Assembly (NCBI GenBank): GCA_024275575.1
Contig: JAJRYV010000130.1
Coordinates: forward strand, 60,565 to 124,564
Direction of reading: 5' to 3'
DNA length: 64,000 nucleotides
Source of the DNA: a bacterium
GTDB lineage: Bacteria > Zhuqueibacterota > Zhuqueibacteria > Zhuqueibacterales > Geothermadaptataceae
Each line of letters starts with the position of its first letter. Position 1 is the stretch's first letter. Below the pieces are notes generated by a model. The model saw nothing but the letters and a program-made list of their open reading frames with translations. It made no database searches and was not told the origin of the DNA. A program made the position numbers and the translations under genes. Positions 11,313 to 58,210 of this stretch are shown here, one piece after another.

Positions 11313-11378
11313 TCTTTTGAGAGCAGTTATCATTAACGGCAATTTTAACAATTGAATCTAAACAGCACAGGATAGATC

Positions 11379-12896: not shown

Positions 12897-12976
12897 TAAC
12901 GGCAGGTATAAAATTAATGAAAAAGTGGCATTACAGGTTTTAACGTAATCCATTTTGATAGTGGCAAACAGTTAGC

Positions 12977-14134: not shown

Positions 14135-14214
14135 CCGGATGATGGTATCCTGATTTTAGCACGCAGGGAAAACAGTTTTTCAAGTAAACAGCAAGGTATG
14201 ACAACAGGTTAAAA

Positions 14215-15348: not shown

Positions 15349-15433
15349 TCTGTGTGGTTTTTGAAGGGATTCATAAACCCACAGGCTTTGCCGGTTGAAA
15401 CCGGCCTGAATAAACTTGCGTAGGGAAAATTTT

Positions 15434-16147: not shown

Positions 16148-16200
16148 TCGCAATTGTGTGACGTGGAGAGAATAGATCATTTTTAACGGGAGATTGTCGA

Positions 16201-17163: not shown

Positions 17164-17193
17164 AGTTTTCGGTATCTCGTTTAGGCCAATTCC

Positions 17194-17223
17194 GCCACAG
17201 GCTGAAGCCTGTGGCTGCTTTTT
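17194..17223 (+). terminator. Rho-independent terminator after the epimerase gene
   Basis: Stem gccacaggc (17194-17202) / gcctgtggc (17207-17215) with loop tgaa, followed by tgcttttt. A second perfect hairpin, gccggctgaaatttcagccggc, follows at 17241-17262. Confidence 0.55.
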
Positions 17224-17405
17224 AAAAACCTGCCTGTGAAGCCGGCTGAAATTTCAGCCGGCTCTATCAGAGGTGAATTGCGTTAGCCTGCCGGTTTAAC
17301 GGCTGGTTAAATAGTCACAGTTTTCGCGGTGCCTTGTCACGGATGACAAAATAAATTTCGCACGGATGTCACTTCTTCTCACATCACCGAACAGAATGAG
17401 CATCA

Positions 17406-18305: not shown

Positions 18306-18350
18306 GCCTATTACCTCAAAAATTATCACGTATTCACAAAAATTATTTCC

Positions 18351-19376: not shown

Positions 19377-19422
19377 GTTTCGATAAATTTTACATTTCGC
19401 AAGGGAACGAAGGATCGCTACT

Positions 19423-20565: not shown

Positions 20566-20607
20566 CCCGTTTAACCTGAAACTTTAAATTTGTAACCAGT
20601 AATCTTC

Positions 20608-21624: not shown

Positions 21625-21688
21625 GAAGAGCATAAAAAAATATTGAGTCGAGCTGAAGATAGCAGCCACAGGAGTTTTTAGAAAAAGA

Positions 21689-23101
21689 ATGGAACGCAAA
21701 AACAAGTTATTAGCCATCGCTTTTATCTATCCGCCGATGGCGCGCGCTGGTGTGCACCGCAGTGTACGATTCGTGCGCTATCTTAAAGAATTGGGTTGGG
21801 ACATCACTATTTTGACCGCTGCTGAAAAATACTACCCACCGCAGACACCGGTCGATCACGGATTAAACAGCAAAATTCCGGCCGGGGTGAATTTGGCCCG
21901 TACAGCAGTTTTTCAGGGTATGTATAAATTATTTAATCTCAAGGTGCGGCGGGCTAAAAACAAAATTGGCGGTGTAAAAGATAAACGCGATGCGCCACAA
22001 ACAACACCCATTCCGCACGCCGAATTGACCTCGGTCGCCGGTAAAATCAAATCGCCAAAAAGCAATGCCGGAAAATCGAAAAAACAGCATGTTAAAGATT
22101 TTATTTTCGATCTTTTCACCCTGCCGGACAAGGAAGTTTTTTGGCTACCTTATGCGGTAGCGCGCGGCTGGCGCCTGCATCGGCAAAATAAATACGATAT
22201 CATTTATTCCACCGCACCGCCGTTTACCGGTCATTTGATCGCCCTGTTTTTGAAAAAGAGTTCCGGCAAACCGTGGATCGCCGATTTTCGTGACCCCTGG
22301 GCGCGCGCTCCGATGAAAAAGAAAGAGCTCGCAGGCACATTCCGCGGTCGTGCAGTACATTTTTTTGAGCGCAAATTTATTGAAAATGCCGACAAGGTCA
22401 TCCTCAACACTGATTGGGCACGGCGGGAATTCCGCCAGTTTTACAAAGGCAAACTCGGGGAGAAATTTGTCGTCATCAACAATGGTTTTGACCCGGAAGA
22501 TTTCGAAAATCTGCAATCGGCAAATTCGCCGGCACCGGCGAAATTCCGCATCACTCACACCGGCGCACTCTACCGCATGCGCGATCCCGGCAATTTTTTT
22601 CGCGCCGTCGATGCGGTGATCGATGCGGGCATCATTGCGAAAAATGAGATCGAAGTCAATTTTATCGGTATTATCGCACGCGAGATTTACAAGTCATTTT
22701 CAAATTTATCCCACCTTGAAGATGTGGTAAAAGTCTATCCGCCGGTGAGCCATGATGAGGCGCTGCGCTTTCAATCGCAGGCTGATGTGTTGCTGGCTTT
22801 GCAGCCAGGCACAAATCTCAGTATCCCCGGGAAAATCTTCGAATATATCGCGCTGAAAAAATACATTTTGGCGGTGACCATCCCCGGCGCCACGGCTGAT
22901 CTGGTGTGTAATTATCATCTCGGTAGCGTCGTCGATCCCAACGATTTTGAGGCGATGAAAAGGGAATTGATCCAGCTCGTTGAAAAGTGGCGACATGATA
23001 AACTACAGCTCAATTTAAACGGGGCATATGAAAAATTCAACGGACGCAATCTGACGCTTGAATTGCATCACCTGTTGACCGAACTTTCAGGTGGCCGATG
23101 A
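21689..23101 (+). CDS. GT-B fold glycosyltransferase (family 4/1-like)
   Basis: 'FIYPPMARAGVHRSVRFVRYL', 'IIYSTAPPFTGHLIA', 'ENADKVILNTDWARREF', and the C-terminal nucleotide-sugar motif 'IPGKIFEYIALKKYILAV'. Confidence 0.7.
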   Translation: MERKNKLLAIAFIYPPMARAGVHRSVRFVRYLKELGWDITILTAAEKYYPPQTPVDHGLNSKIPAGVNLARTAVFQGMYKLFNLKVRRAKNKIGGVKDKRDAPQTTPIPHAELTSVAGKIKSPKSNAGKSKKQHVKDFIFDLFTLPDKEVFWLPYAVARGWRLHRQNKYDIIYSTAPPFTGHLIALFLKKSSGKPWIADFRDPWARAPMKKKELAGTFRGRAVHFFERKFIENADKVILNTDWARREFRQFYKGKLGEKFVVINNGFDPEDFENLQSANSPAPAKFRITHTGALYRMRDPGNFFRAVDAVIDAGIIAKNEIEVNFIGIIAREIYKSFSNLSHLEDVVKVYPPVSHDEALRFQSQADVLLALQPGTNLSIPGKIFEYIALKKYILAVTIPGATADLVCNYHLGSVVDPNDFEAMKRELIQLVEKWRHDKLQLNLNGAYEKFNGRNLTLELHHLLTELSGGR

Positions 23102-24138
23102 AAATTGTTGTCGAAGATGTTCTAACGGCAATTTCGCAAGACCGTGATGTGTATTTCCCCACCGGACTCACCACTCCCCTGAAGATTTCAAAAAAAATAT
23201 GGCGGCCCTACAGCCGTGTTTTCCGCATTGAAGCGAGAACCGGAGACGGTGTCCGTTATTTTTGGGTGAAATTGTTTAAAGTACCGAAGAATTTTCAGGA
23301 AATGGCGGACAAATATCTCGCCAGACTGCAAACCGAGTTCGATATTGCAACGCAGTTGCAACAGGCTTTTGAGAATATGCCCGGGGTGCAGGTTGTGGCA
23401 CCTCTCGCGGTTTTTCCGCAGTTCGGTGCTGTCGCAACCTGGGAAAGCCGGGGCAAACCGTTCAGCGACCTGATCGATCAATACGGCCGCCGCTGGTCGA
23501 AAAAAAATCACGATCAATCGTTGCTGGATTATGCATTTAAAAGTGGCCGGGCTTTGGCGCGTTTACAGGAGTTCACGCTGACCGATCAGGTTTTTCAGCC
23601 GCAGGAACTCATCGAATATATCGATATCCGTCTGCAACGCCTGGTAAAAAACAATCGCGCGCCATTTTCCGGAAAAGAGCGGAAAATGGTGCGCGATTAT
23701 CTCGATCGGCAAATTCCGGCTGTCCCTGCGGCTGAATGCCGTATCAGTGGCGTACACAGTGACTTTGGCGCTTTTAATGTGCTCGCTGAAGACGGCTGCA
23801 TTACCCTGAGCGATTTTACCTCTTATAAGCTTGGCTCGACCTACGTCGATTTGACCTATTTTCATCATCGGCTCGGCGGTTTTCTGCACAAACCGGTTTT
23901 CCGGGAAGAATTGATCCGGCAATTGCAACAGCAGTTCCTTGCCGGATATGGGGGGGCCGGGGTCGAGCGCCATCACATGTTTACTCTTTCGCTATTGCGC
24001 CACACCATCAATAATTTCAGCTCTCTCGCGCGCAACCGCCGTGGCGGGCTTGGCAGAATTCCATTGCCGCATGTCCGGCTTTTCAATCGCCGCATTTTCA
24101 AAATTTATAGAAAATGGCTGCATGATATCTGCAAATGA
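23098..24138 (+). CDS. Protein-kinase-like fold phosphotransferase (APH/choline-kinase-like), function unknown
   Basis: Catalytic-loop-like 'GVHSDFGAFNVL' (H.D....N) followed by a DFG-like 'ITLSDFTS'. The start ATG overlaps the GT4 stop (ATGA at 23098-23101). Confidence 0.5.
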   Translation: MKIVVEDVLTAISQDRDVYFPTGLTTPLKISKKIWRPYSRVFRIEARTGDGVRYFWVKLFKVPKNFQEMADKYLARLQTEFDIATQLQQAFENMPGVQVVAPLAVFPQFGAVATWESRGKPFSDLIDQYGRRWSKKNHDQSLLDYAFKSGRALARLQEFTLTDQVFQPQELIEYIDIRLQRLVKNNRAPFSGKERKMVRDYLDRQIPAVPAAECRISGVHSDFGAFNVLAEDGCITLSDFTSYKLGSTYVDLTYFHHRLGGFLHKPVFREELIRQLQQQFLAGYGGAGVERHHMFTLSLLRHTINNFSSLARNRRGGLGRIPLPHVRLFNRRIFKIYRKWLHDICK

Positions 24139-45775: not shown

Positions 45776-47662
45776 ATGAAAACCGGTACTTTTGAGAGAA
45801 TCTACACTGATTTCGTCGAAAACGTTCGAACTCAGTTTATCAATAGTGATGTGTTGATTCAGAATGTGCAGTCGCAAACTGCGGGAGTTTATGAAAACCT
45901 TGCGGACAAGCTGCCGCGCATCATCGAACAAATCGATTCCAGCAGTAATGAAGCACGAGCGCTGGTGAATTATTTTATCACGGCGGATGATAAGCAATAC
46001 GGTGTGAGTATTGTGGGGAAAGAGCTGGAGCAGGCGCGCAACAAACTGCGTGAGGCCTCAAAGTCAATTCATGAAATGCGCAGTGTCGATTTGACTCTTT
46101 TCCGGCGCATTCAGGAACAGGTTAATCAAATAGAAACCATTCATGGATCGATAACTTCGATTTCGAAAATTTCTGATGATATCGAATTGCTCTCTTATAA
46201 TTCCGGGTTTGTCGCCAGCCGGGCAGGGGTAAGCGGAGCGGCCTTCACCTATATCGCGGCGGAAATTAAAAAGTTATCCAATCGCACGAAGAAACTGGTC
46301 AACCGTATGCGCACCAGCACTGACGGCCTTATCAATAGCTACCGGGAATTTAATCAGGCAATTGAAAAAATTAATGATGAAACCGATTCAAAACTCGATG
46401 GTATTGATGAAAATCTGGCGACTATTTTTGAGCGTTATCATGATAGCTTAAAAAATATTGCCTCATTGCTCGAGCAAAGTCTCAGGCGTTCTGAAGATGC
46501 TAAAAAAAGCGTCTTTTCGGTGATGACTGCATTGCAGGATCAGGATATTATTCGCCAGTCGCTGGAGCAGGTCACCAGCTTAAATAATCGGTTCAGCAAG
46601 GAAACAGAGCTGGCCTATCAGAGCATGGCGCTCGATTCTATCCCTGAAGTACACAGGTTGGAGATTGCCGAGCAGGCGACGGCAAAACTGATTTTGATGA
46701 CGCAGATTGCTGATCCGATGATCAAGGGCATTATTGAGAATCTCGAGAATTCTCTGAAAAAACTGGTGAGTTTCCTCAACATATTCCATGCCGAAGTGCA
46801 GGATATTGAGAATGATCGCGGCGCCCTGGTGGATTTTTTTGCTAACGCACAGAGCGATCTGGGCGACCGCAGCAGTATTGATCTGATTTTTGATGAATCC
46901 GGCAATGTTATGCAGGAACTGATTTATTTTATCAAGCAGTCGATCAGCAAGAAACGTGACGCCAGCGATCTGGGGAATTGCCTGATACAATTTATGAATA
47001 CGACGGAGAGCTGTTTCGAGGAGATGCAGGATATTGTCAAAGCCTTTTCACTGATCAAAGTGGCTTCCAAAATGGAAATAGCCCGGGAACAGGAATTATC
47101 GAAAAATATCACGACTTCATCGGAAATGTTTGAAGAGCTGACCAATAAAATGGAAGAGATGATCGTGCAATTGCGGCGGCAGCTTGTTGCGGCCAACCAG
47201 AGCATTCACGAAAGCCTGCAGACGCTCAATGATAACCTGACATTGCAGGAAGAAAATGTCGAGCAAGTGAGTGCAAAAATTGAGGTTTCGAGCCAGAATT
47301 TGGAAAACATGCGTATCAATCTCAACCAGGCTGTGCGTTCAGTGGGCAAAGAATCCACTGCGCTTTTCAAGCTCATCGATGATTCTCTCGATGGCGCCGG
47401 GAAATTACAGAAGATGGCTGAAACTTCCGGCCAGTTATCTTCTAATTATGAATCGGTGCGTAATTTGGCGGAAACAGTGCGCCGGCATGGGGCCCAGTTC
47501 TATCCCGTCATTTTCAACAAAACGCCGTCTTTTGACCGCTTCGACGATATTAAAAAAGTAGTCGAAAAATTTGCGGTTTACTCCGATAAATATATAGCGA
47601 AACAGACGATGGAGCTGGAAATGGAGGAAGGCAGCGCTGGTGGTGATCTGACGCTGTTTTGA
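45776..47662 (+). CDS. Soluble coiled-coil protein with a divergent MCP signalling-tip-like segment (atypical chemoreceptor-like protein)
   Basis: No TM segment. 'DIELLSYNSGFVASRAGVSGAAFTYIAAEIKKLSNRT' aligns with the canonical tip of the in-window MCP, '[37 protein letters not shown]'. The rest is heptad-rich. It is the first gene of the che operon. Confidence 0.55.
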   Translation: MKTGTFERIYTDFVENVRTQFINSDVLIQNVQSQTAGVYENLADKLPRIIEQIDSSSNEARALVNYFITADDKQYGVSIVGKELEQARNKLREASKSIHEMRSVDLTLFRRIQEQVNQIETIHGSITSISKISDDIELLSYNSGFVASRAGVSGAAFTYIAAEIKKLSNRTKKLVNRMRTSTDGLINSYREFNQAIEKINDETDSKLDGIDENLATIFERYHDSLKNIASLLEQSLRRSEDAKKSVFSVMTALQDQDIIRQSLEQVTSLNNRFSKETELAYQSMALDSIPEVHRLEIAEQATAKLILMTQIADPMIKGIIENLENSLKKLVSFLNIFHAEVQDIENDRGALVDFFANAQSDLGDRSSIDLIFDESGNVMQELIYFIKQSISKKRDASDLGNCLIQFMNTTESCFEEMQDIVKAFSLIKVASKMEIAREQELSKNITTSSEMFEELTNKMEEMIVQLRRQLVAANQSIHESLQTLNDNLTLQEENVEQVSAKIEVSSQNLENMRINLNQAVRSVGKESTALFKLIDDSLDGAGKLQKMAETSGQLSSNYESVRNLAETVRRHGAQFYPVIFNKTPSFDRFDDIKKVVEKFAVYSDKYIAKQTMELEMEEGSAGGDLTLF

Positions 47663-47713
47663 TATCTCCCTTGTCTGGAAAAACATGAAATATCATAATT
47701 AATAAAAGGAACG

Positions 47714-48031
47714 ATGATGGATATTGAAATTAGCACAAATGGCAATTCCATTAATGCAAAAGTCGTCGGGACCATGACCGAGGCCGATTCGGATGCAATC
47801 AAAAAAGGCTTTAATAAATTGCGCGATGCCAACGCCTCGAAAGTTGTCATTGATCTATCCCATGTGCCGACGATCTCCAGTTCGGGGATCGGCAAATTGA
47901 TTGCACTGTATCGCCGCGTGAAAGAGCAAAATCGCCAATTTGAGATCGATGGTATCCATGAGAATTTGTATGCCTTGTTCACCTCGATCCATCTGAATAA
48001 ATTGTTCACAATTAAACAAACTGGCGACTGA
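47714..48031 (+). CDS. STAS-domain anti-sigma-factor-antagonist-like protein (SpoIIAA/RsbV type)
   Basis: 105 aa. 'KVVIDLSHVPTISSSGIGKLIALYRRVKEQNRQFEIDGIHENLYALF' has the D-L-S..(x)..SSG phosphorylatable-serine context. Confidence 0.8.
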   Translation: MMDIEISTNGNSINAKVVGTMTEADSDAIKKGFNKLRDANASKVVIDLSHVPTISSSGIGKLIALYRRVKEQNRQFEIDGIHENLYALFTSIHLNKLFTIKQTGD

Positions 48032-48065
48032 ATTTTATTTATAATTGAGAATTGGTACCTTTGTA

Positions 48066-48443
48066 ATGGCAAAAAAAATATTAGTCGTCGATGATTCGGC
48101 GACGACACGATCATCGGTGCAATACATTTTAGCACAGGCCGGTTATTCCGTTGCACTGGCAAACGATGGCTCTGACGGTTTGCGAAAAATCGAGGAAGTG
48201 ACCCGCGCCGGAGACACGTTATCGATGATCATTACGGATATTAACATGCCGGTGATGGATGGCATCAGATTTACGCGCGAGGTGAAAAGTGGACCGCACC
48301 GTGGAACGCCGGTGCTCGTTCTGACAACGGAATCACAGCAATCCAAAAAACAGCAGGGTAGGGAAGCGGGCGCTGCGGGCTGGCTGGTCAAACCATTCCA
48401 GCCGGATCAACTTGTAACCGTTGTGCGCAAACTGGCAGGATAG
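48066..48443 (+). CDS. cheY: CheY-like single-domain response regulator
   Basis: 'KKILVVDDSATTR...MIITDINMPVMDG...VLVLTTES...WLVKPF' has all canonical receiver residues (DD, D, T, K). The ATG at 48066 is preferred to the TTG at 48045. Confidence 0.85.
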   Translation: MAKKILVVDDSATTRSSVQYILAQAGYSVALANDGSDGLRKIEEVTRAGDTLSMIITDINMPVMDGIRFTREVKSGPHRGTPVLVLTTESQQSKKQQGREAGAAGWLVKPFQPDQLVTVVRKLAG

Positions 48444-48472
48444 GACAGATAGCTATTTGACAGGAGACAGGA

Positions 48473-51184
48473 ATGGGGAAACCCGAAGAATTAATGCAAA
48501 TTTTTCTCGATGAGAGCCGGGAATTAATTGAAAGTCTGGATCAGAATATCGTCGCTTTCGAGGATGATCCGCAAAACAAACCGCTGTTAGATGATATCTT
48601 TCGCGCCTTTCATACGCTGAAGGGCAATGCCGGGCTCGTCGGTCTGAAAAAATTTGAAAAGATCGCCCACATCACCGAAGAGATATTATCGGATATTCGC
48701 GACGGCCGCGTCGAGATTACTGCCGAATTGATTTCATTTATGCTCGAAGCGCTCGATCGCCTGAAAATATTGCATGAAGCGGTGGAAAAAACCAATTCCG
48801 ATGATGTGGAAATTGAGATGGACAGTCTGTCCAAACCGACAGGCGACGAAACGCAAAATGATCAATCTGTGACGCCGGAATCATCAGATTCTGTCCAGGC
48901 TGAAGAGACCGCTATCGAAAATGAAGTCGTCTCTGAGGACGGCTCCTGGGGGCTTTTCCCTGAAAATATTGAAGATAGACCCATGGAAACCGGCGATAGC
49001 CGCGAGGAACTGATCGAGCAAGCTGATGAGTTCGAAACCGCGGCTGAATTGAGTTCGAATGCGGCAAAAGCTGCCGGTGAGGCAGCAACGAAAAAAACGG
49101 ACGTGCCCGAGAGCTGGAATAAACCTGAAACCGCGATCCGTGTTGATGTCGGGTTACTCGACAGGATGATGAATCTTGTTGGCGAGCTGGTACTGTCACG
49201 TAATCAGATTTTGCAATTCGTACCGCAATTTGAAAATTCTAATTTTGCCTCGACTTGCCAGCGGCTTAACCTGGTGACGAGTGAATTACAGGAAAGCGTG
49301 ATGAAAACGCGCATGCAGCCAATCGGCAATATTTTTAATCGTTTTCGCCGTGTAGTGCGGGATGTCGCGAAGGATACCGGCAAACTGGTCAATCTGAAAA
49401 TTGAAGGACAGGAAACCGAGCTCGATAAAACGATTATCGAAGGCATTCGGGACCCGTTGACGCATCTGGTGCGCAATGCGATCGATCATGGCATTGAAAA
49501 CGAAAAAAAACGCAAAACCCAGGGCAAACCTCCCTGCGGCACATTAGTTTTGCGGGCATATCACGAAGGCGGCCAGGTCAATATCGAGATCATCGATGAC
49601 GGTGCCGGAATGGATGTGCGAAAAATCAAGAATAAAGCCATCGAGAGGCAACTCATCACGCCGGAGCAGGCGCAGAAAATGGCGGATAAAGACGCCCTGG
49701 GGCTCATTTTTCAGCCGGGATTTTCCACTGCCGCCAAAATTACAAATATTTCCGGCCGTGGCGTCGGTATGGATGTCGTGCGTACCAATATCGAAAAAAT
49801 CGGTGGTTCGGTTGAACTCAACAGCATCCACGGGCAGGGTTCGACAATTAAAATAAAGATTCCCCTGACTTTGGCGATTATTCCGGCGCTTGTTTTAAAA
49901 TGTAATGACCAGCGTTTTGCCATTCCACAGGTGAGTTTGCTCGAACTCGTTCTGCTTGAAGGCGATAATATACGACAGATCGAAAAAGTAGGCGATGCGG
50001 AAATTTACCGTTTGCGCGGCAAGCTGTTGCCGATAATCCGTCTCAGCGAGATGTTGAAATTACCGGCCAGGGCGCCATTACCAGAGGAGGCGGTCAGTAT
50101 TATCGTGCTTTCGGCCGATAATACCGAATTTGGTCTCATCGTCGATGAAATCCTCGATACGGAGGAAATCGTCGTCAAACCTCTGAGCAAACATTTGAAA
50201 AATATCCGTGCTTTTGCCGGGGCAACGGTGATGGGGGATGGTAAAGTTGCCCTTATTCTCGATGTCGTCGGGCTGGTGGAAAGAGCGGCTTTGCAACTGG
50301 ATAAAGGCGCGCGAGAATTGCATAGCACTGAGGCGCAAAAGAAAGCCGAGACCGGAACCTTGCATACTCTACTACTTTTTACCCTTGCTGAAAATGAATA
50401 TTTCGCCGTGCCATTATCGCTGGTTGCACGCCTGGAAACTTTCCCGGCAAACGCGGTCGAACAGGCCGGCAGTAGCCCGGTTATGCAATATCGCGGCAAT
50501 ATCATGCCACTGATTCGCCTTGATTCAGTGCTGCCGGTTAATCCGATGCCGGAAAATGAGAATATTTCCGTGCTCACTTTCAAAGTCGACAATAATGACG
50601 TCGGGCTGGTGGTCAATGAGATTATCGATGTCATTGAAACGCGCGACAAACTGGATAGTGAGGCGCTGAATGAATCCGGTATTTTGGGCTCGGTGGTGTT
50701 AAACGGCAAAGTGACCGTTCTCGTCGACGCCTTTGAAATCATCAAAGGGGAATTCCCGCACTGGTTCGATAAAAAAGGGCTGGGGCCGGAGATCGAATAC
50801 GAAAATCAGCGGGTACTCATCGTCGATGATTCGACGTTCATTCGCTCCACTTATCGCACCTATCTCGAACCCGAAGGTTTTACGATTGTCGAAGCTGAGA
50901 ATGGTGAAGAAGCGCTGGAAATCATTTCCGCTGACAGCTTTGATTATATCATTACAGATATCGAAATGCCGCAAATGGACGGGCTTGAGCTGACAAAAAA
51001 TATTCGTGCCAACAAAAAGCTGCGTGATTTGCCGATCATCGTTTCTTCCAGTCTGGCGAACGAGGACGATATACGGCGCGGCAAGGAAGCGGGTGCCGAT
51101 GCTTATCTGAAGAAAATTGATCGCGTTAGTTTGCTCAACGCCCTGGAAATGGCCTCGACAGAAAATGAAAACGGGGAGAACTAA
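48473..51184 (+). CDS. cheA: Hybrid CheA histidine kinase: Hpt - acidic linker - dimerisation - HATPase - CheW-like x2 - receiver
   Basis: Hpt 'FRAFHTLKGNAGLVGL'. P3/P4: 'IRVDVGLLDRMMNLVGELVLSRNQ', 'DPLTHLVRNAIDHGIE', 'DDGAGMD', 'GRGVGMDVV'. First CheW-like domain: 'QRFAIPQVSLLELV...FGLIVDEILDTEEIVVKPL'. Second: 'EYFAVPLSLVARLE...VGLVVNEIIDVIE'. REC: 'VLIVDDSTFIR...IITDIEMPQMDG...YLKKI'. Confidence 0.9.
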   Translation: MGKPEELMQIFLDESRELIESLDQNIVAFEDDPQNKPLLDDIFRAFHTLKGNAGLVGLKKFEKIAHITEEILSDIRDGRVEITAELISFMLEALDRLKILHEAVEKTNSDDVEIEMDSLSKPTGDETQNDQSVTPESSDSVQAEETAIENEVVSEDGSWGLFPENIEDRPMETGDSREELIEQADEFETAAELSSNAAKAAGEAATKKTDVPESWNKPETAIRVDVGLLDRMMNLVGELVLSRNQILQFVPQFENSNFASTCQRLNLVTSELQESVMKTRMQPIGNIFNRFRRVVRDVAKDTGKLVNLKIEGQETELDKTIIEGIRDPLTHLVRNAIDHGIENEKKRKTQGKPPCGTLVLRAYHEGGQVNIEIIDDGAGMDVRKIKNKAIERQLITPEQAQKMADKDALGLIFQPGFSTAAKITNISGRGVGMDVVRTNIEKIGGSVELNSIHGQGSTIKIKIPLTLAIIPALVLKCNDQRFAIPQVSLLELVLLEGDNIRQIEKVGDAEIYRLRGKLLPIIRLSEMLKLPARAPLPEEAVSIIVLSADNTEFGLIVDEILDTEEIVVKPLSKHLKNIRAFAGATVMGDGKVALILDVVGLVERAALQLDKGARELHSTEAQKKAETGTLHTLLLFTLAENEYFAVPLSLVARLETFPANAVEQAGSSPVMQYRGNIMPLIRLDSVLPVNPMPENENISVLTFKVDNNDVGLVVNEIIDVIETRDKLDSEALNESGILGSVVLNGKVTVLVDAFEIIKGEFPHWFDKKGLGPEIEYENQRVLIVDDSTFIRSTYRTYLEPEGFTIVEAENGEEALEIISADSFDYIITDIEMPQMDGLELTKNIRANKKLRDLPIIVSSSLANEDDIRRGKEAGADAYLKKIDRVSLLNALEMASTENENGEN

Positions 51185-51666
51185 TGGATAATTATTATGA
51201 AATGAGCGCCGCAACCAACACGGCCACTTGCCAATATGCAACTTTTTATCTCGACGGTGAGTTTTTCGGCATCGACGTCATGCGTGTCCAGGAAATTTTA
51301 CGGCAACAATCGATGACGCCGATTCCCCTGGCGCCGGAATATATCTGCGGTCTGATCAATTTGCGCGGACAAATCGTAACGGCGATGGATTTGGGTAAAA
51401 AATTGACCAATCGCCCTGGTGAGTGTAAAACAGATGGTATGAATATCGTCGTGGCAACGCAGGAGAATTCCCTCAGCCTGGTTGTCGATGAAATTGGCGA
51501 CGTGCTCGATATCGATGATGAAGCGATTGAACCCGTTCCTGCGACGCTGAATAAGATTAAAGCGAAGTTTCTCAAAGGAGTTTATAAACTAAACAACGAT
51601 TTATTGCTTTTACTGGATGTGCATAACATCGTGGAAGACGTCGATATTCGTATTGGAGCTGCTTAG
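51184..51666 (+). CDS. cheW: CheW coupling protein
   Basis: 'YATFYLDGEFFGIDVMRVQEIL...APEYICGLINLRGQIVTAMDL...LSLVVDEIGDVLDI'. The start overlaps the cheA stop (TAATG, 51182-51186). Confidence 0.9.
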   Translation: MDNYYEMSAATNTATCQYATFYLDGEFFGIDVMRVQEILRQQSMTPIPLAPEYICGLINLRGQIVTAMDLGKKLTNRPGECKTDGMNIVVATQENSLSLVVDEIGDVLDIDDEAIEPVPATLNKIKAKFLKGVYKLNNDLLLLLDVHNIVEDVDIRIGAA

Positions 51667-51744
51667 CGGCAGAACGGTTTACATAAATAAAAGTGGCCAC
51701 ATCGAAGGATTTATAAAAATAGCAAGATAAAAAGGAAAACGAAA

Positions 51745-53412
51745 ATGGCGACCCTTGACAAAACAAGAGATGAAGCAAATGAGGTAAAAATCGTTGAACA
51801 GGCAAAAATCAAATCGATTGAATCCCTGCATCCCGATGCAGTTATCCCGGTTGATGAACATGCAGACAGCGATATCCTTGGTATTTCAAAAACTGCACTG
51901 GACTGCCTGCAAACAAATGTATTTATCGGCACGACTGATTTCCGGCTGGTTTATGCCAATAAAAAAGCGATTGAGACAATTCGTTATTTAGAACCTGAAA
52001 TTAAACGTGTGTTCAATGTTGGCCTCGATGACATTCTCGGCGGCTCGATTCACCGTTTCCATCGCGATCCTGCGGCAGTAGAGAAGATTCTCACCAACCC
52101 GGCTGCTTTGCCGCACCAAAAAGCTTTCGCTTTCGGCAATGTCGTTCTCTCGACGAATATCAATGCGATTAAAGACCCAAAGGGTGAAATTCTCGGCTAT
52201 GTTGTCAACTGGGAAGATGTCAGTGAATCGGTACGGCAAGCGAAAGAGACGGCCCGATTGCATTCGGCCATTGACGGAACCTCCACTGCGATGATGATGA
52301 TCGACCGGGATTTTGTTATCACCTATGTCAACCCGGCGACGACAAAACTGTTTCAGAAACATGAAACGACTTTCCAGAACTCTTTTCCCGGATTCGACGC
52401 GAACAGCCTGCTTGGCTCCTGCATCGACAAGTTTCATGCAAATCCTGAACGCCAGCGGACATTATTGAGCAATCCGGCAAATTTGCCTTACAGTACTAAT
52501 ATTACCATCGGTGATTTGCATTTTACTCTCAATATAACGGCGATGATTGATGAGAAAGGTGATTTTATCGGAAATACGATGGAATGGTATGATATCACCG
52601 ACAAATTTCAGGTAAAAGACGGCACAGCGAGTTCGGTGCAGGAGTTGGCCAAAGCTGCGTCAAATCTGCTGGATATCAGCAACCAAATCGCAAGCAATGC
52701 GGAAGAAACCTCTATGCAATCCAATAATGTTTCTGATGCCAGTAGCCAGGTGAGTATGAATATCGATAATGTTGCCGCCGCAATCGAGGAGATGAATACC
52801 GCAATCAAGGAAATTGCCAACCGTGCCGGTGAGGCTTCTAACATCACCGATAATGCCGTCACCATTGCCTCGGGTGCCAACGAGACGATTTCCAGTCTCG
52901 GCGACAGTTCGAAGGAAATCAGCAAAGTGATCAAAGTCATCACTTCAATCGCCCAGCAAACAAACCTTTTGGCGCTCAATGCAACTATTGAAGCGGCGAG
53001 AGCCGGAGAAGCGGGAAAAGGGTTTGCTGTTGTCGCCAATGAAGTGAAAGAACTGGCAAAAGAAACAGCTTCGGCTACGGAAGATATCACGCAGATTATC
53101 GAGAAAATTCAGAAGGATACCGAAGGTTCGGTTGATTCTGTAAAACAGATTGTCAGTATTATTAAAAATATCAACGATATCTCCAACACCATTGCCGCTG
53201 CTGTTGAAGAACAATCGGTAACAGCCGCTGATGTCGCAAATAATGTTGCGCAGGCATCGACGAGCGCTGCAACGATCGTTGATAATATTGGTCAGGTGAC
53301 CCAGGCCGCAGCAGAAACTTCTGCGGGCGCGGAACAAATGCGGAATCATTCGCAGGAATTATCCGAGCTTTCCAGGCTTCTGGAATCCCAGGTGAGTAAA
53401 CTTGAACTTTAA
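51745..53412 (+). CDS. Soluble methyl-accepting chemotaxis protein with two N-terminal PAS-like domains
   Basis: No TM segment. PAS-like 'DFRLVYANKKAIETIRYL' and 'DRDFVITYVNPATTKLF'. The canonical MCP tip is 'IAQQTNLLALNATIEAARAGEAGKGFAVVANEVKELAKETASAT'. Confidence 0.9.
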   Translation: MATLDKTRDEANEVKIVEQAKIKSIESLHPDAVIPVDEHADSDILGISKTALDCLQTNVFIGTTDFRLVYANKKAIETIRYLEPEIKRVFNVGLDDILGGSIHRFHRDPAAVEKILTNPAALPHQKAFAFGNVVLSTNINAIKDPKGEILGYVVNWEDVSESVRQAKETARLHSAIDGTSTAMMMIDRDFVITYVNPATTKLFQKHETTFQNSFPGFDANSLLGSCIDKFHANPERQRTLLSNPANLPYSTNITIGDLHFTLNITAMIDEKGDFIGNTMEWYDITDKFQVKDGTASSVQELAKAASNLLDISNQIASNAEETSMQSNNVSDASSQVSMNIDNVAAAIEEMNTAIKEIANRAGEASNITDNAVTIASGANETISSLGDSSKEISKVIKVITSIAQQTNLLALNATIEAARAGEAGKGFAVVANEVKELAKETASATEDITQIIEKIQKDTEGSVDSVKQIVSIIKNINDISNTIAAAVEEQSVTAADVANNVAQASTSAATIVDNIGQVTQAAAETSAGAEQMRNHSQELSELSRLLESQVSKLEL

Positions 53413-53570
53413 GCTGGCGGCTGTTTTTGCTGTTGCAGTACCATTTCATCTGCAGCCGATAAAGCGGGCGGGATTTAAGAATGTGATTTTCGCTTGTTCC
53501 ATTACCGGCTGCCGGCCATAGGAATGATGGAAATAAGCAGAGAAATGATATTTAAACTGTCAGGGCAAAA

Positions 53571-53936
53571 ATGAAGGCACTTACAGTAGATGATTCACAA
53601 ACTGTCCGTGTGATGGTGCGCAATATTCTCGAAGATAATGAGATTGAAGTTTTGGAAGCGACCAACGGACGGGAAGCATTGCAAATCGTACAGGAAAACG
53701 AGGGTATCGACGTCATCCTGCTCGATTGGGAAATGCCCTTGATGAACGGCTATGAATTCCTCACAGAAGTACGCCGGCATAAACTCGCTGAGAATACGCG
53801 TATTATTATGCTGACGACTTTAAAAAAGATGAGCAATATATTGCAGGCCATCGATGCCGGCGCTGATGAGTACATCATGAAACCGTTCACCCCGGAAATG
53901 GTCATTGAAAAAATTGAGAGTGTTTTACACAATTAA
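53571..53936 (+). CDS. cheY: CheY-like single-domain response regulator
   Basis: 'ALTVDDSQTVR...VILLDWEMPLMNG...IIMLTT...YIMKPF', a canonical receiver. Confidence 0.85.
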   Translation: MKALTVDDSQTVRVMVRNILEDNEIEVLEATNGREALQIVQENEGIDVILLDWEMPLMNGYEFLTEVRRHKLAENTRIIMLTTLKKMSNILQAIDAGADEYIMKPFTPEMVIEKIESVLHN

Positions 53937-53946
53937 TAAAGTTTAA

Positions 53947-55020
53947 ATGATGTTGCGAATATTAGTAGTCGACGATTCAGCACTTTACCGCAAGACCATC
54001 AGCGATATTCTTAACGCTGATCCGGCAATCGAAGTTGTCGGGACGGCACATAATGGACGAATGGCACTGGAAAAAATACCGCGTTTATCTCCAGATGTGA
54101 TCACGCTCGACATGGAAATGCCAGAGATGGACGGCCTGGCAACACTGAAAATACTACGCCGTGATTTCAATAATGTGAAAACGGTTGTTTTCAGCGCCCA
54201 TACCGAGCGCGGCGCAGAATTGACTATCGAGGCACTCAACCTGGGTGCAGTCGATTTCGTCACAAAACCGGGCCGCAATCAAAAAATGGATGCCAGTCTT
54301 GAGCAGATGAAGCAGGAGCTTCTGCCCAAAATTCTGGCCTTTGCCCAGCGCAATCGAACCCGATCTTCGCTTGCTCGTGATAACAAGCAGCAACAAAAGA
54401 CAGGAATCGTTGCCGTACCGGTGCGCTCTTTTCCCCGCCCGGTTGTGAAAAAACGACAGGTCATCGCCATTGGTGTCAGCACCGGTGGCCCGAAAAGCCT
54501 GGAAGTCTTCTTTCACAGCTTGCCCGCATCTCTGAATCCGGCGATTCTGATCGTGCAGCACATGCCGCCGATTTTCACCCGCAAGCTCGCAGAACAACTG
54601 GGTCGGGATGGGAAAATCCCGGTCTGTGAAGCACAGGATGGCGAAGTTATTAAAAGCGGCCACGCTTACATTGCACCCGGTGGCCAACATATGACGGTTA
54701 GAAATGGTGGTGCAGAAATAATTGTCAGTCTGAATGCCGATCCGCCGGAAAATTTTTGCCGCCCGTCGGTCGATGTGCTGTTCCGTTCCGTTGCTGAAGC
54801 CTACGGCCAACGAGCTATCGGAGTTATCATGACCGGCATGGGGGATGATGGCTGCGCGGGCAGCCGGGTGATGAAAGAAACCGGCATCCCCATCATTGCA
54901 CAAGATGAAGAAACCAGCGTCGTCTGGGGTATGCCCGGTGCAGTTGTCAAAAATGGCCTGGCTGATAGAATTTCGCCGTTGAAAAAGATTTATGCAACGA
55001 TTTGTGATTACAGCCTATGA
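53947..55020 (+). CDS. cheB: Chemotaxis response regulator protein-glutamate methylesterase
   Basis: REC 'ILVVDDSALYR...VITLDMEMPEMDG...FVTKP' plus an esterase domain with the catalytic contexts 'GVSTGGPKSL', 'IVQHMPP', 'TGMGDDGCAG'. Confidence 0.9.
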   Translation: MMLRILVVDDSALYRKTISDILNADPAIEVVGTAHNGRMALEKIPRLSPDVITLDMEMPEMDGLATLKILRRDFNNVKTVVFSAHTERGAELTIEALNLGAVDFVTKPGRNQKMDASLEQMKQELLPKILAFAQRNRTRSSLARDNKQQQKTGIVAVPVRSFPRPVVKKRQVIAIGVSTGGPKSLEVFFHSLPASLNPAILIVQHMPPIFTRKLAEQLGRDGKIPVCEAQDGEVIKSGHAYIAPGGQHMTVRNGGAEIIVSLNADPPENFCRPSVDVLFRSVAEAYGQRAIGVIMTGMGDDGCAGSRVMKETGIPIIAQDEETSVVWGMPGAVVKNGLADRISPLKKIYATICDYSL

Positions 55021-55090
55021 AAAATAAGTCAAAGTTTTACCTTTTGCAATTTTGCACTGTTTTCCTTGAAATAATATAACTTTTTTAGTC

Positions 55091-55210
55091 TCTGTTCAGC
55101 ACACAATGCGGACGCTGAGCCTGCCGAAGCTGGAGCATCCTCTCATCTTGTCCGAAACGCGCCTTCCTTCGCAAGCTCAGGGAGCGCTTCTTGCGCGCAC
55201 GCTAAACAGA
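55091..55210. repeat. ~120-bp nested-hairpin element in the cheB-cheR spacer
   Basis: The outer inverted repeat is tctgttcagc (55091-55100) / gctaaacaga (55201-55210). The inner long stem is ctgagcctgccgaag (55115-55129) / ccttcgcaagctcag (55166-55180). Confidence 0.45.
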
Positions 55211-55292
55211 TGCCCTTTTTAAAAATTTGTCAATAATGCAGGATAAAATTTCGAATATTTGAATTCGATTCATTTTCAAAGCAGACTTGCGA

Positions 55293-56171
55293 ATGATAGA
55301 AGTACAAACACAATCAGTAACCGATGACATCAGCCCATCACAAATCGATTTTATTTCCGATTTTATCTACAGAAAAACCGGCATCGTTTTAGGGCAGAGC
55401 AAGAAATATCTCATCACCAGCCGGCTCTATAGCGTGGCGCGTATCTTGGGCAAGGATTCCTTACTCGCTGTCATCGAAGAGTTGCGGCTGCGCCCGACGC
55501 GTCAATTGGAAACGCTGGTGATCGATGCATTAACAACTAACGAAACTTTGTGGTTCCGTGATAAAAAACCGTTCGATGCATTGACTTCGAAGATCTTGCC
55601 GTTTTTGCATACAGTAAAAAAGGAAAAGGAACTGAGCATCTGGTCTGCAGCCTGCTCCAGCGGTCAGGAGGCTTATTCAATCGCCATGCTGCTGCATACC
55701 TGTGATTTATTTACAGACTGGAAAATCAATATATGGGCGACCGATATTTCTTCGCAGATATTGGAACGGGCAAAAAAGGCAACATATACGCAAATGGAAA
55801 TCAGTCGTGGCTTGCCTGTGCAATATCTGTTGAAATACTTCACAGAAAGCGATGATGATAATTGGACTTTGAATGAAGTCATTAAAAAGCTCGTCACATT
55901 TGAGCATTTTAATCTCCAGACAGAGCAGGCGCCGCCGTCGAAGTTCGATCTGGTGTTTTGCCGCAATGTGCTGATCTATTTTGACCGTGAAACAAAAAAT
56001 AAAATTCTCGATAATATCCTGAAAGTATTGCTGCCGCACGGCCTGCTTCTCGTTGGCGGGGCCGAGTCGACGTTGGGTATTCACAAACAATTCCAGCCGC
56101 TGCGCTTTGATTCAGCGATTTTTTACGGCGCTGAAACCAGTGGCGCATTTTGGGCGGAAATAGCGGGTTGA
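55293..56171 (+). CDS. cheR: Chemotaxis protein methyltransferase
   Basis: CheR_N helices are followed by the SAM domain 'IWSAACSSGQEAYSIAMLL', 'IWATDISSQILERAKKATY', 'FDLVFCRNVLIYFD'. The ATG at 55293 is preferred to the TTG at 55287. Confidence 0.9.
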   Translation: MIEVQTQSVTDDISPSQIDFISDFIYRKTGIVLGQSKKYLITSRLYSVARILGKDSLLAVIEELRLRPTRQLETLVIDALTTNETLWFRDKKPFDALTSKILPFLHTVKKEKELSIWSAACSSGQEAYSIAMLLHTCDLFTDWKINIWATDISSQILERAKKATYTQMEISRGLPVQYLLKYFTESDDDNWTLNEVIKKLVTFEHFNLQTEQAPPSKFDLVFCRNVLIYFDRETKNKILDNILKVLLPHGLLLVGGAESTLGIHKQFQPLRFDSAIFYGAETSGAFWAEIAG

Positions 56172-56210
56172 TAAGAAAACAGTTAGTCGGTTGGGACAGG
56201 CAGTGAAATT

Positions 56211-57131
56211 ATGATGAATCAAATCTTGTTAATCGAAAGCAAAAGCGAAATTACCAACCTGTTCATAGCTTTTTTTAAGGGAAAAAATTTCCTTTTCCGC
56301 GCTGTTACCGATGCAGTTGAGGCCTTGCGGCTAATCGACAAAGATAAAAGCATCGAACTGGTCTTTATCAACTGTGAAAATGCCGGTATGGACGGCCTGG
56401 AATTTTTACGTATATGCAGTGTCAATCACCCGGATTTACTCGTTGTGTTGTTCTCTGATCAGATGGATACAGCAAAATTAGGCTTCGCATTGCGCTACCG
56501 GGCATTTGATTTTCTCACTTTGCCTGTTGAGCATGAGCAGATCGGGAATGTCGTCAAGCGGGCTGCTTTAACATTTAACCGCCAGGACCGGCATTGGCGG
56601 GCAGCACGATTTGTTCATGATGTCGACTTTGCCCTCACCTCGAAAGCTGCTGATTTATCTATCGAATTTATCCGTGATGCGGTGAAAAAAATGCTTTTTC
56701 GCTATACACCGATCAATAGCAATGCCGTCGAAAATATTCTCCTGGCCCTGTGTGAAGCTATCCAGAATGCCCTGGATCACGGTAGCCTCGAACTCGATTC
56801 AACCCTCAAAGACCAGCCCGGGGAAAATGATTATGAATCGATGTTTGATGTGGTGAAGCGGCAGCGCCTGGAACAGGTCGAATATGGTGGCCGTAAAATT
56901 GCCGTGCGCATGCGCATCGAAACGGAAAAATTACAGATTTCCGTTGCCGATGAAGGTGCCGGGTTCAAAGCTGAAATCAGGGATGAAGCAAGCGGCAATG
57001 TTTATGGAATGGGATTGATGCTCATCCGAAATATCGTCGACCGGGTCTATTTTAATGAAAAAGGGAACAAGATTACTTTCGAAAAAAATGTCGAATTACC
57101 AGATAATTTCGCCGAACCCGCTCCTCTCTGA
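56211..57131 (+). CDS. Pseudo-receiver fused to an RsbW/SpoIIAB-like GHKL serine-kinase (anti-sigma-factor-type) domain
   Basis: The N-terminal REC fold has substituted key residues (see findings). C-terminal N-box 'LCEAIQNALDHGSLEL', G1 'ISVADEGAGF', G2 'VYGMGLMLIRNIVDRVYFNEKGNKITFEK'. There is no HisKA/H-box. Confidence 0.7.
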   Translation: MMNQILLIESKSEITNLFIAFFKGKNFLFRAVTDAVEALRLIDKDKSIELVFINCENAGMDGLEFLRICSVNHPDLLVVLFSDQMDTAKLGFALRYRAFDFLTLPVEHEQIGNVVKRAALTFNRQDRHWRAARFVHDVDFALTSKAADLSIEFIRDAVKKMLFRYTPINSNAVENILLALCEAIQNALDHGSLELDSTLKDQPGENDYESMFDVVKRQRLEQVEYGGRKIAVRMRIETEKLQISVADEGAGFKAEIRDEASGNVYGMGLMLIRNIVDRVYFNEKGNKITFEKNVELPDNFAEPAPL

Positions 57132-57310
57132 CCAGCTGTTTCCGTGTCTGAAATCTGTCTCCGCACCGATATCTGAAATTTTTATTTCTCCTTGCATGTT
57201 TTGTTATTTGTGCTAACTCAGACAGTGAAAATCAGTAGTTATTCCTGTTTAACCACTCTTGAGCCGTCATTTTCAAACCGGAGTTGATCATTTTATTCTC
57301 CAGGTGAGGT

Positions 57311-58210
57311 ATGTTCGAAAATATTCTTTTTTTAGAAAAAGATCAGCAATTACGAAAAACAGTATTTGAGATTTTGCAGAATAACGGGTACAATGTCATT
57401 TGTACCGAACGCATCAAACCGGCATGTGAAATCATTCGTGAAAGTAACGCCGATCTGGTGATCGCCGATATCAGGGGTGAACGTCAATCAGGATTTGAAA
57501 TCCTGCGCTGTCTGAATGAAATGCACCCGCCAATTCCCAGTATTCTGATTGTCAGAAAACATTATGATGAAACCGTTCTGCGTGCAATCAGGCTCGGCGT
57601 CTTTGATTTGCTCGTCGAGCCTCTGCGGCAAGATGACCTGTTGCAAACGATTAAAAGGGCGGAATATCTTTTCTATGCAACACGGCTTAAATCCGGTTTC
57701 CCCAATTTGGTAAAAAATATGACTATAAATTTGGAGTTTAGCTCAAAAGATTTTCAGCTTGATGAAATTCAGAAAGTTTTTCAGGATACCTTGCTTGATT
57801 ATTCAAAATTTTCGCCGGATGATTTTCTGACCATCTGGCTTGGTGTCGAAGAGGCTTTGCTCAACGCCCTGGAGCATGGTAATCTTGAATTGAAATCGAG
57901 CTGGAAAGATGAGCTTTTGGGCGGCGTTGAATTCTCGAAGTTTGAAGAAGTGCGCAAGGAACGACTGGCTGATCCATTCTTTGGCGAACGCAAAATCAAA
58001 ATGGAAATTGAGATGAAAAATGGACAATTGCAAATTACAATTGAAGATGAGGGGCCGGGGTTTGAGAATCGTGGACCCGGGTTAGACGCATCGCACGATG
58101 TCTACGGCCGTGGGCTGTCGATCATCGATAATATTATGGATTCGATGGAGTTTAATGAAAAGGGTAACCGCATCGTCATGCGCAAGGCTTTTGGATGGAA
58201 TAAAAAATGA
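57311..58210 (+). CDS. Degenerate receiver fused to an RsbW/SpoIIAB-like GHKL serine-kinase domain (paralogue of 56211..57131)
   Basis: Same architecture. 'GVEEALLNALEHGNLEL', 'ITIEDEGPGF', 'VYGRGLSIIDNIMDSMEFNEKGNRIVMRK' are colinear with the upstream paralogue. Confidence 0.7.
   Translation: MFENILFLEKDQQLRKTVFEILQNNGYNVICTERIKPACEIIRESNADLVIADIRGERQSGFEILRCLNEMHPPIPSILIVRKHYDETVLRAIRLGVFDLLVEPLRQDDLLQTIKRAEYLFYATRLKSGFPNLVKNMTINLEFSSKDFQLDEIQKVFQDTLLDYSKFSPDDFLTIWLGVEEALLNALEHGNLELKSSWKDELLGGVEFSKFEEVRKERLADPFFGERKIKMEIEMKNGQLQITIEDEGPGFENRGPGLDASHDVYGRGLSIIDNIMDSMEFNEKGNRIVMRKAFGWNKK

Follow-up and report, generated by a model that had tools for sequence, protein, structure and literature searches.

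The question raised by this locus is how a chemosensory (Che) operon with no motility gene near it passes on its signal. The operon comprises eleven genes at positions 45776-58210, on the plus strand, in a stretch of bacterial DNA of 64 kb (contig JAJRYV010000130.1 of assembly GCA_024275575.1). This whole stretch is called the window below, and the gene absences reported here hold for the window only. Besides a Che core, the operon encodes a STAS protein and two fusions of a receiver (REC) with an RsbW/SpoIIAB-type GHKL domain, i.e., the antagonist and kinase parts of a partner switch; an earlier note, made from the sequence alone, had pointed out this combination. The answer favored here, with about even confidence, is that the operon encodes a cytoplasmic, adapting, gas-sensing Che array that is coupled to the STAS/RsbW partner switch via protein contacts.

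All eleven co-directional open reading frames (ORFs) of the earlier note were recovered, and the Pfam domain calls agree with the domains that it had given (Table 1). The Che core is complete and includes adaptation: CheA (with Hpt, P3, P4 and P5), CheW, the signaling domain of a methyl-accepting chemotaxis protein (MCP), CheY, CheB and CheR are encoded, with catalytic residues intact. CheA has the architecture Hpt-acidic linker-P3-P4-P5-P5-REC, with His47 of the Hpt domain in the motif FHTLKG. It matches two NCBIfam CheA models with E values of 2e-128 and 5e-115, both under the equivalog cut-offs. Four receivers of the operon are canonical, namely CheY1 (DD, D, T and K residues all present), CheY2 (catalytic residues intact), the REC domain of CheB and the C-terminal REC domain of CheA. 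The start of CheY1 was placed at the ATG at 48066 and not at the TTG at 48045, because the orthologues are 125 aa long. About 47 of the 52 larger non-overlapping ORFs of the window were scanned with Pfam or NCBIfam models; five short ORFs (115-194 aa) were left out. None of the scanned ORFs is a PP2C/SpoIIE, sigma-factor, flagellar, pilus, cheZ, cheC or cheD gene, as the earlier note had reported, and a phmmer search with one PP2C query gave no match in the window. The same note had called the STAS protein and the kinases the only non-Che parts. This is correct within the operon; elsewhere in the window a second STAS-domain protein is encoded (Table 1).

The two fusion proteins, products of genes 10 and 11, are designated RK10 and RK11. 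Over the full length their mutual identity is 28%. The ordinary HATPase_c model matches RK10 at only 2.6e-4 and RK11 not at all, and no HisKA domain was found in either protein. RK10 has weak NCBIfam matches to RsbW and SpoIIAB. RK11 matches the structure of LvrC (PDB 9QIH, deposited as SenB) over residues 4-293 (E 4.7e-19). An AlphaFold2 (AF2) model of RK11 (pLDDT 79.6) retrieved the same entry as its best Foldseek match (E 1e-20), and its C-terminal domain matches the SpoIIAB entries 1TIL, 1TH8 and 1L0O (TM-score 0.67-0.71 on the target). In an alignment of 33 family members that includes both window proteins, the residues of the N-box (E, N, H-G), G1 (DxGxG) and G2 (GxG) motifs are invariant. 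Ordinary histidine-kinase ATPase domains were therefore rejected: HATPase_c_2 scores far above HATPase_c, and no HisKA or dimerization and histidine phosphotransfer (DHp) domain is present. The RsbW/SpoIIAB assignment of the earlier note thus passed the profile search and is borne out by the fold matches to LvrC and SpoIIAB. Strict membership in the CrsR/HsbR type was also rejected, as RK10 and RK11 have no PP2C domain. The LvrC-type family is large, with about 1,700 clusters (50% identity) at E <= 1e-10 and only 16 at E <= 1e-30; nearly all of the best-scoring 150 are about 300 aa long with full-length matches. An exact-sequence look-up of RK11 returned no record.

In the STAS protein, Ser56 aligns with Ser58 of SpoIIAA and is invariant across all che-linked STAS orthologues; it is the predicted phosphorylated serine. 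The protein is 19% identical to SpoIIAA and 34-38% identical to the STAS proteins encoded beside REC-RsbW genes in two loci without che genes, L007 (STAS-RK-GAF/PP2C) and L022 (PP2C..STAS-RK), where RK denotes the REC-RsbW protein. By this measure it belongs to the same subfamily as the STAS proteins of these triads.

A neighborhood survey of HATPase_c_2 fusions, as proposed in the earlier note, was performed with one genome per species. The query was a narrow alignment of 11 sequences, the 33-sequence alignment being too diverse. REC-HATPase_c_2 relatives are encoded at 491 loci, and gene neighborhoods were mapped by phmmer for the best 80 of these. Ten of the 80 are linked to che genes, four are near STAS or PP2C genes without che and 66 stand alone (mostly in Holophagaceae). 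All ten che-linked loci come from metagenome-assembled genomes (MAGs) labelled as or resembling Calditrichota/KSB1. The closest relatives of RK11 are likewise from a Calditrichota MAG (71% identity) and a KSB1 MAG (63%).

The operon is conserved across several of these MAGs, and a chance juxtaposition of the genes was rejected for this reason. At locus L005 (GCA_020431365.1) all 11 genes stand in the identical order with the same genes on either side, and the CheA encoded there is 71-72% identical to that of the window. In L088 (GCA_015491795.1, 6715-21557) the order is the same, but there are two tandem STAS genes, and the receptor is a globin-PAS-MCP protein preceded by two free-standing globin genes. 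L009, whose kinase pair is 100% identical to that of L088, holds the portion of the operon from cheA onward, and L010 holds cheB-cheR-RK-RK. The RK10/RK11-type pair co-occurs in every locus of the two-kinase type. A sister form has a single kinase. In L012 and L014 the genes for the MCP-like protein, STAS, CheY, CheA, CheW, PAS-MCP, CheY, CheB and CheR are followed by a REC-RsbW gene and then a REC-PP2C gene, with both receivers canonical. In L087, cheR-RK-REC-PP2C adjoins a divergent cheA-cheW-MCP-MCP cluster, and the RK ORF is without most of the receiver. In L014 and L087 the gene after that for PP2C encodes a single-domain Hpt protein; such a gene is also nearby in L012 (Hpt regions: L012, 16617-17857; L014, 12345-13895; L087, 11824-12180). 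By analogy with the Pseudomonas hptB-hsbR-hsbA genes, which it resembles, this arrangement suggests a second phosphorelay input. Extra receivers are also encoded in L012 and L014, and the Hpt gene of L012 has hybrid histidine kinase genes on either side. The che-linked form with RK and REC-PP2C holds the parts of CrsR/HsbR split into two response regulators. Both the sister operons and the triads of L007 and L022 show that the REC-RsbW family works in the company of STAS and PP2C proteins.

The receivers of the two kinases set the window operon apart. Residues are compared with Asp12/13, Asp57, Thr87 and Lys109 of Escherichia coli CheY. RK10 of the window has Glu-Ser in place of Asp12/13, Asn54 in place of Asp57, Ser in place of Thr87 and Leu104 in place of Lys109. 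Its counterparts in L001 (GCA_008501765.1, the closest Calditrichota MAG) and L005 are changed at the same positions, to Glu-Lys and Glu-Asp, Ser and Thr, Ala and Ser, and Ser and Leu, respectively. The RK10-type receivers of L009, L010 and L088 are canonical (Asp-Asp, Asp, Thr, Lys). RK11 keeps the acceptor Asp53, but has Glu-Lys at the first position (Asp13 to Lys10), Val81 for Thr87 and Glu103 for Lys109. All its other orthologues have Glu/His-Lys, Asp, Val/Ala and Glu/Arg, so that in L088, for example, a canonical first kinase receiver is combined with a second one that is a pseudo-receiver. The pockets of LvrC, of nearly all distant relatives examined and of the single RK (variant A) are canonical or near-canonical, with the acceptor Asp and the Lys present in all. 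In a neighbor-joining tree the RK10-type, RK11-type and single-RK proteins fall into one che-linked clade. The che-linked loci thus form a graded series: RK with REC-PP2C, canonical RK with pseudo-RK, and two pseudo-RKs (window and L005).

The earlier note had called the kinase receivers degenerate. This is the case in both, through loss of the acceptor Asp in RK10 and of the rest of the pocket in RK11. With the pockets lost, the view of RK10 and RK11 as canonical response regulators fed by CheA was rejected, and it is unlikely from these residues that CheA~P feeds the RK receivers in the window. Because its pocket losses are common to all orthologues, the RK11-type pseudo-receiver has been kept for long and is not newly broken. 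Since the window and L005 keep the full che operon while both RK receivers are degenerate, the system is maintained without a phosphorylatable kinase receiver.

The genes of the operon evolve at very uneven rates. In comparisons between the window, L001 and L005, identities are 63-71% for RK11, only 41-44% for RK10 and 75-86% for the flanking genes. CheY1 is 59% identical between the window and L001 and 90% between the window and L005, the latter value exceeding that of the flanking housekeeping genes.

These data bear on a different reading, rather unlikely in our view, in which the operon serves ordinary aerotaxis or energy taxis via CheY to flagella encoded elsewhere, and the REC-RsbW genes are what remains of an ancestral output, either being lost or acting independently of Che. 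It would account for the degenerate state of both RK receivers, for the low identity of RK10 between genomes next to well-conserved flanking genes, and for the disappearance of the PP2C gene of the sister operons. Decay of the locus is seen in nature: in the syntenic locus of L001 (6039-10909) only a CheA remnant is left, without P4 and the first P5 and with the Hpt His changed to Arg. There the cheW, MCP, cheY2, cheB, cheR and MCP-like genes are absent; STAS, both kinases and CheY1, the last with Ile in place of Thr87, are intact. A more distant CheA relative, at L089, is accompanied by a heme-sensor MCP of the protoglobin type and by CheX, and has no switch genes at all. This reading is opposed by the kinases themselves. 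Both kinase ORFs are intact in the window, L001, L005, L009/L088 and L010, the motifs for ATP binding and catalysis are invariant over the 33 family members, RK11 is conserved at 63-71%, and the pocket losses of the RK11 type are shared by all orthologues. No motility gene is present in the window.

According to the coupling that is favored here, the signal would enter through a soluble Aer2-like receptor, described below, and possibly also through a lineage-specific MCP-like protein as a further receptor. The receptor would control CheA by way of CheW and the pair of P5 domains that CheA carries. CheA~P would phosphorylate CheY1, CheY2, CheB and its own C-terminal REC domain, and CheB together with CheR would provide adaptation. 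RK10 and RK11 would be serine kinases or binding proteins of the RsbW/SpoIIAB/LvrC type that act on Ser56 of the STAS protein. They would also act on a target encoded outside the window; the simplest candidate is an alternative sigma factor, compare CrsR and RpoS. As both RK receivers are without a phosphorylation pocket and the operon is still maintained, the coupling is most likely by protein contact. CheY1~P would most likely bind a pseudo-receiver or the STAS protein; docking of CheA is the alternative. To reset STAS~P, the cell would need either protein turnover or a PP2C phosphatase whose gene lies elsewhere in the genome. The kinase domains of SpoIIAB, LvrC and CrsR/HsbR all dimerize (PMC13269768 for LvrC). 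RK10 and RK11 may form a heterodimer, because such kinases dimerize and the two paralogues always co-occur.

A narrower version of this proposal is improbable but specific. In it, the RK10/RK11 heterodimer is a phosphorylation-independent adaptor whose kinase or sequestering activity is switched by the binding of CheY~P or CheA; the partner switch would work without a dedicated PP2C phosphatase, and the second kinase paralogue would occupy the place of the phosphatase in the operon. If true, Che systems would have a further, new type of output: a serine kinase/anti-sigma module under the control of diffusible CheY~P. The series of relatives would then record a stepwise swap of phosphotransfer for protein-protein coupling.

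The proposed coupling of the Che array to the switch has several points against it. Two of the four components of a canonical partner switch, the PP2C phosphatase and the sigma factor, are missing from the window. The pseudo-receivers take away the obvious link to CheA. RK10 changes much faster than its flanking genes, which could mean relaxed constraint. The decay of L001 implies that the switch parts can exist without a working CheA. The direction of the signal flow, finally, is one that we infer.

The signal could indeed run the other way. The STAS protein, in one of its phosphorylation states, would then bind the receptor, CheA or CheY1 and tune kinase activity or array assembly; RK10 and RK11 would set that state according to the ATP/ADP ratio or another cue, and the output would be CheY~P acting elsewhere, e.g., on a motor. 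A switch that regulates the array was proposed for Campylobacterota (PMC9239204). The STAS gene stands at the 5' end, directly before cheY-cheA, both here and in published stage 1 F7 clusters, the RK receivers of the window cannot take phosphate from CheA, and HsbA shows that STAS proteins can have several partners other than kinases. Such reverse wiring is nevertheless judged unlikely. In the sister operons, canonical receivers on the RK (L012 and L014) and on the PP2C protein (L012, L014 and L087) stand at the 3' end of the che operon, which is the usual position and form of a Che output. Moreover, the switch genes of L001 outlive the array genes, which would be odd if their sole role were to regulate the array.

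The input side of the array can be described with more detail. The Aer2-like receptor (PAS-PAS-MCPsignal) matches the NCBIfam model of Vibrio Aer2 over residues 49-289 (E 2e-98), and its second PAS domain matches 6CEQ (E 2e-25), an entry whose deposited name is "methyl-accepting chemotaxis protein". Both PAS domains align with the PAS domain of Pseudomonas aeruginosa Aer2 (3VOL, 4HI4) and retain the His of the FH motif and the Trp of the last strand, i.e., His106/Trp156 in PAS1 and His231/Trp281 in PAS2. These positions we take to be the heme ligand and the O2-stabilizing residue of Aer2. No HAMP domain was found in the receptor by Pfam. In alignments to PDB chains the MCP domain shows, relative to Tsr (36H), one 7-residue gap per arm, and its length is compatible with 36-38H. 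Judged from the conserved PAS residues, the input is probably O2, NO, CO or redox state. A heme-based gas or redox signal is also the likely conserved input, because the MCP encoded at this operon position in relatives is coupled to a globin or protoglobin (L088, L089).

Neither receptor has a transmembrane segment, in agreement with the earlier note; the maximal Kyte-Doolittle means over 19 residues are 1.05 and 1.08. The MCP-like protein of gene 1 is more divergent. Its MCPsignal match (residues 89-255, E 1.9e-10, 41.3 bits at a cut-off of 34.6) is weak but above the threshold, and there is a weak NCBIfam match to the BB0569 family. The AF2 model (pLDDT 82) consists of long helices throughout, with hairpins near residues 148-152 and 437-442, the first of which may be a divergent MCP tip according to the model. 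Foldseek matches are mostly generic coiled coils, with MCP cytoplasmic domains at low significance, and no significant internal repeat was found in the protein. The family has about 20 members among 5.8 billion proteins; full-length members are 625-641 aa long and the named ones are from Calditrichota/KSB1. After a low-confidence tail, the C-terminal six residues are conserved (family consensus GELTLF, GDLTLF in the window), an end that recalls the C-terminal tethering peptides of some MCPs, though the usual Trp is absent. The gene is also the first one in the operons of L005, L012, L014 and L088.

Outside the clade, the closest organism-named CheAs belong to Planctomycetota, Nitrospinota and Acidobacteriota (42-50% identity). 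Many of the closest organism-named CheAs (KSB1, Planctomycetota, Nitrospinota, Acidobacteriota) have a C-terminal REC domain. Nearest-neighbor comparison gave no resolution of the Che class of CheA.

The coordinates of the operon genes and of other features of the window are given in Table 1. TAATG at 51182-51186 joins the cheA stop and the cheW start, as read directly from the junction sequence and as noted earlier. The further description of the genes as tightly packed fits part of the operon. In operon order the intergenic gaps are 51, 34, 29, -1, 78, 158, 10, 266, 39 and 179 bp, so that several short gaps and one overlap stand beside gaps of up to 158, 179 and 266 bp. The two longest are located before cheR (55021-55286, 266 bp) and between the genes for RK10 and RK11 (57132-57310, 179 bp); internal promoters are possible in both. 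A promoter scan was uninformative (32 promoter-like sites versus 19 expected), a terminator scan found no convincing terminator within or after the operon, and Rfam gave no match in the window. On either side lie housekeeping genes or genes with no relation to the operon: upstream a Methyltransf_23 gene, downstream and on the opposite strand the genes for a DAO-family oxidoreductase and a methyltransferase.

Table 1. Positions of the che operon genes and of other features in the 64-kb window
Feature	Position	Strand	Domain and family matches
Divergent soluble MCP-like protein, 628 aa (gene 1)	45776..47662	+	Pfam MCPsignal
Single-domain STAS protein, 105 aa, anti-sigma antagonist type	47714..48031	+	Pfam STAS, E 4e-13; TIGR00377, E 2e-10
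CheY1, canonical single-domain receiver, 125 aa	48066..48443	+	Pfam REC, E 1e-25
CheA hybrid kinase, 903 aa	48473..51184	+	Pfam Hpt, H-kinase_dim, HATPase_c, CheW x2, REC
CheW	51184..51666	+	Pfam CheW, E 7e-33
Soluble Aer2-like receptor PAS-PAS-MCPsignal, 555 aa	51745..53412	+	Pfam MCPsignal, E 8.5e-36
CheY2, canonical single-domain receiver	53571..53936	+	Pfam REC, E 1e-29
CheB methylesterase with canonical REC	53947..55020	+	Pfam CheB_methylest, E 4e-65; NCBIfam CheB, 419 bits (cut-off 293)
CheR methyltransferase	55287..56171	+	Pfam CheR, E 4e-60, and CheR_N; NCBIfam CheR, E 7.5e-46
RK10 (gene 10), REC + RsbW-type GHKL	56211..57131	+	HATPase_c_2, E 7e-16; REC, E 4e-9
RK11 (gene 11), REC + RsbW-type GHKL	57311..58210	+	HATPase_c_2, E 1e-15; REC, E 5e-14
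Hybrid histidine kinase, 1349 aa	509..4558	+	Reg_prop/Y_Y_Y propeller repeats, HisKA, HATPase_c, two receivers
XrtA/PEP-CTERM-type exopolysaccharide locus	6537..24138	+	
Second STAS-domain protein, 385 aa, in the exopolysaccharide locus	12977..14134		N-terminal STAS domain, Ser motif kept

Two further loci of the window were noted. The hybrid histidine kinase near the start of the window could feed other phosphorelays in the genome. The exopolysaccharide (EPS) locus is of the XrtA/PEP-CTERM type and contains genes for a sugar transferase, Poly_export, a chain-length determinant, a tyrosine autokinase, an XrtA-type deacetylase and a FemAB protein, of which the latter two exceed the NCBIfam cut-offs. 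It is here that the second STAS-domain protein is encoded, which is conceivable as an extra substrate of an RsbW-like kinase.

This second STAS protein, with its Ser motif, is the reason to consider an output other than a sigma factor. The kinases and the STAS protein of the operon would then control an enzyme or another STAS protein, e.g., the one in the EPS locus 32 kb upstream, in the manner of SypE/SypA or of the Anabaena HenR module. STAS/RsbW-type modules are reported to control polysaccharide synthesis and diguanylate cyclases (PMC3610818, PMC10120452, PMC13555669; HsbA-HsbD). The sole link between the EPS and che loci of the window is that both lie within the same 64 kb; no EPS-che neighborhood was seen in the related loci, although none was tested for. 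This possibility is very unlikely as formulated, and since it changes only the target it is a variant of the coupling favored above and not its opponent.

Among known systems, the ancestral Aer2-type systems of class F7 (stages 1 and 2) are the most similar in gene order. Their function was called unclear by Ortega et al. 2020 (PMC7184735). They occur in gamma-proteobacteria as V. cholerae cluster III, S. oneidensis Che1 and P. aeruginosa Che2 (PMC7184735; PMC9855816, Fortier et al. 2022). The stage 1 cluster reads STAS-cheY-cheA-cheW-cheW-aer2-cheR-cheD-cheB-mcpA-STAS-serine phosphatase (PMC7184735). In the window, too, a STAS gene stands directly before cheY-cheA-cheW, followed by the gene of the Aer2-like receptor, so that the first five genes after the MCP-like gene have nearly the same order. 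Both clusters include cheB and cheR as well as RsbW-type kinase/anti-sigma parts, their Aer2-like heme-PAS receptor is soluble, and neither cluster contains cheZ or motility genes. An extra MCP-like gene that is hard to classify is also common to both; detectable relatives of the one in the window are confined to Calditrichota/KSB1. The proposed role is again stress response (RpoS control) and not motility.

The differences are several. The operon of the window has no cheD, and it has one cheW together with a second P5 domain in CheA, which also bears a C-terminal REC domain. Its receptor is without HAMP domains, whereas the F7 Aer2 receptors are poly-HAMP proteins of heptad class 36H. A second CheY gene precedes cheB. 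The operon ends in two pseudo-receiver-RsbW proteins without PP2C, and not in one REC-PP2C-RsbW protein and a second STAS protein. The host belongs to Calditrichota/KSB1 and the closest organism-named CheAs are not proteobacterial; the likeness to F7 is one of gene order and gene content.

LvrC of Leptospira, a REC protein with an RsbW-like anti-sigma-type domain that is phosphorylated by LvrB, was solved in 2026 (PMC13269768, Nat Commun 2026). RK10 and RK11 share with it the length of about 300 aa, the N-terminal REC domain, the C-terminal Bergerat/RsbW-like domain and the lack of a DHp domain. The receiver of LvrC is canonical (Asp53), is phosphorylated by the histidine kinase LvrB and is not associated with a che operon. 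In contrast, RK10 is without the acceptor Asp and RK11 without the surrounding pocket, and the two paralogues are encoded last in a che operon to which a STAS gene also belongs.

CrsR/CrsA and HsbR/HsbA/HptB (PMC6482189) likewise pair a STAS protein with an RsbW-type kinase/anti-sigma domain that is linked to a receiver. CrsR/CrsA, which controls RpoS, is contained in the Shewanella che1 locus (PMC9855816); the earlier note had given its position beside a che cluster correctly. The sister operons L012, L014 and L087 hold the same parts (RK, REC-PP2C and Hpt) as separate proteins. CrsR and HsbR differ in that each is a single three-domain protein with its own PP2C domain for resetting the STAS protein; in the window there is no PP2C gene, and the kinase receivers are not phosphorylatable.

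SypE of Vibrio fischeri has its domains in the order kinase, REC and PP2C in one chain, and in the RsbK-RsbY-RsbM system of Bacillus cereus a CheR-like methyltransferase is attached to the partner-switch pathway. Both are unlike the window operon in having no CheA/CheW/MCP core. SypE/SypA is similar in that the phosphorylation state of a STAS protein is set by a protein of the response-regulator type and in that the output, Syp polysaccharide, need not be a sigma factor (PMC3610818, PMC10120452).

The general idea of a Che system with a partner switch, as well as the REC-RsbW architecture, is therefore already published. The statement of the earlier note that the layout is undescribed does not hold for the kind of system, which is covered by F7 stages 1 and 2 (PMC7184735) and by LvrC (PMC13269768); it applies, as far as the searched literature goes, to the form that has two pseudo-receiver kinases and no PP2C. 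That literature contained no description of this form or of the split form with RK and REC-PP2C, no such operon in Calditrichota/KSB1 and, for the PP2C-less form, none outside Proteobacteria. The derived layout without a PP2C gene and with a duplicated kinase appears to be new.

The system is real and conserved, and its main value lies in comparative support and in natural intermediates. The only functional lead for the F7 stage 1 and 2 systems has been the neighboring CrsR/CrsA switch in Shewanella. In a distant phylum group, RsbW-type kinases and a STAS protein are now seen in the same association with a Che core and an Aer2-like or globin gas receptor, which makes it more credible that such arrays have partner switching as a recurrent and selected output and that the link is no accident of gammaproteobacterial gene order. 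The LvrC family is extended by pseudo-receiver members, and some of its members are placed in a che context. The loci with and without a PP2C partner of the kinases, and with and without phosphorylatable receivers, are natural "mutants" in which the workings of the coupling can be tested.

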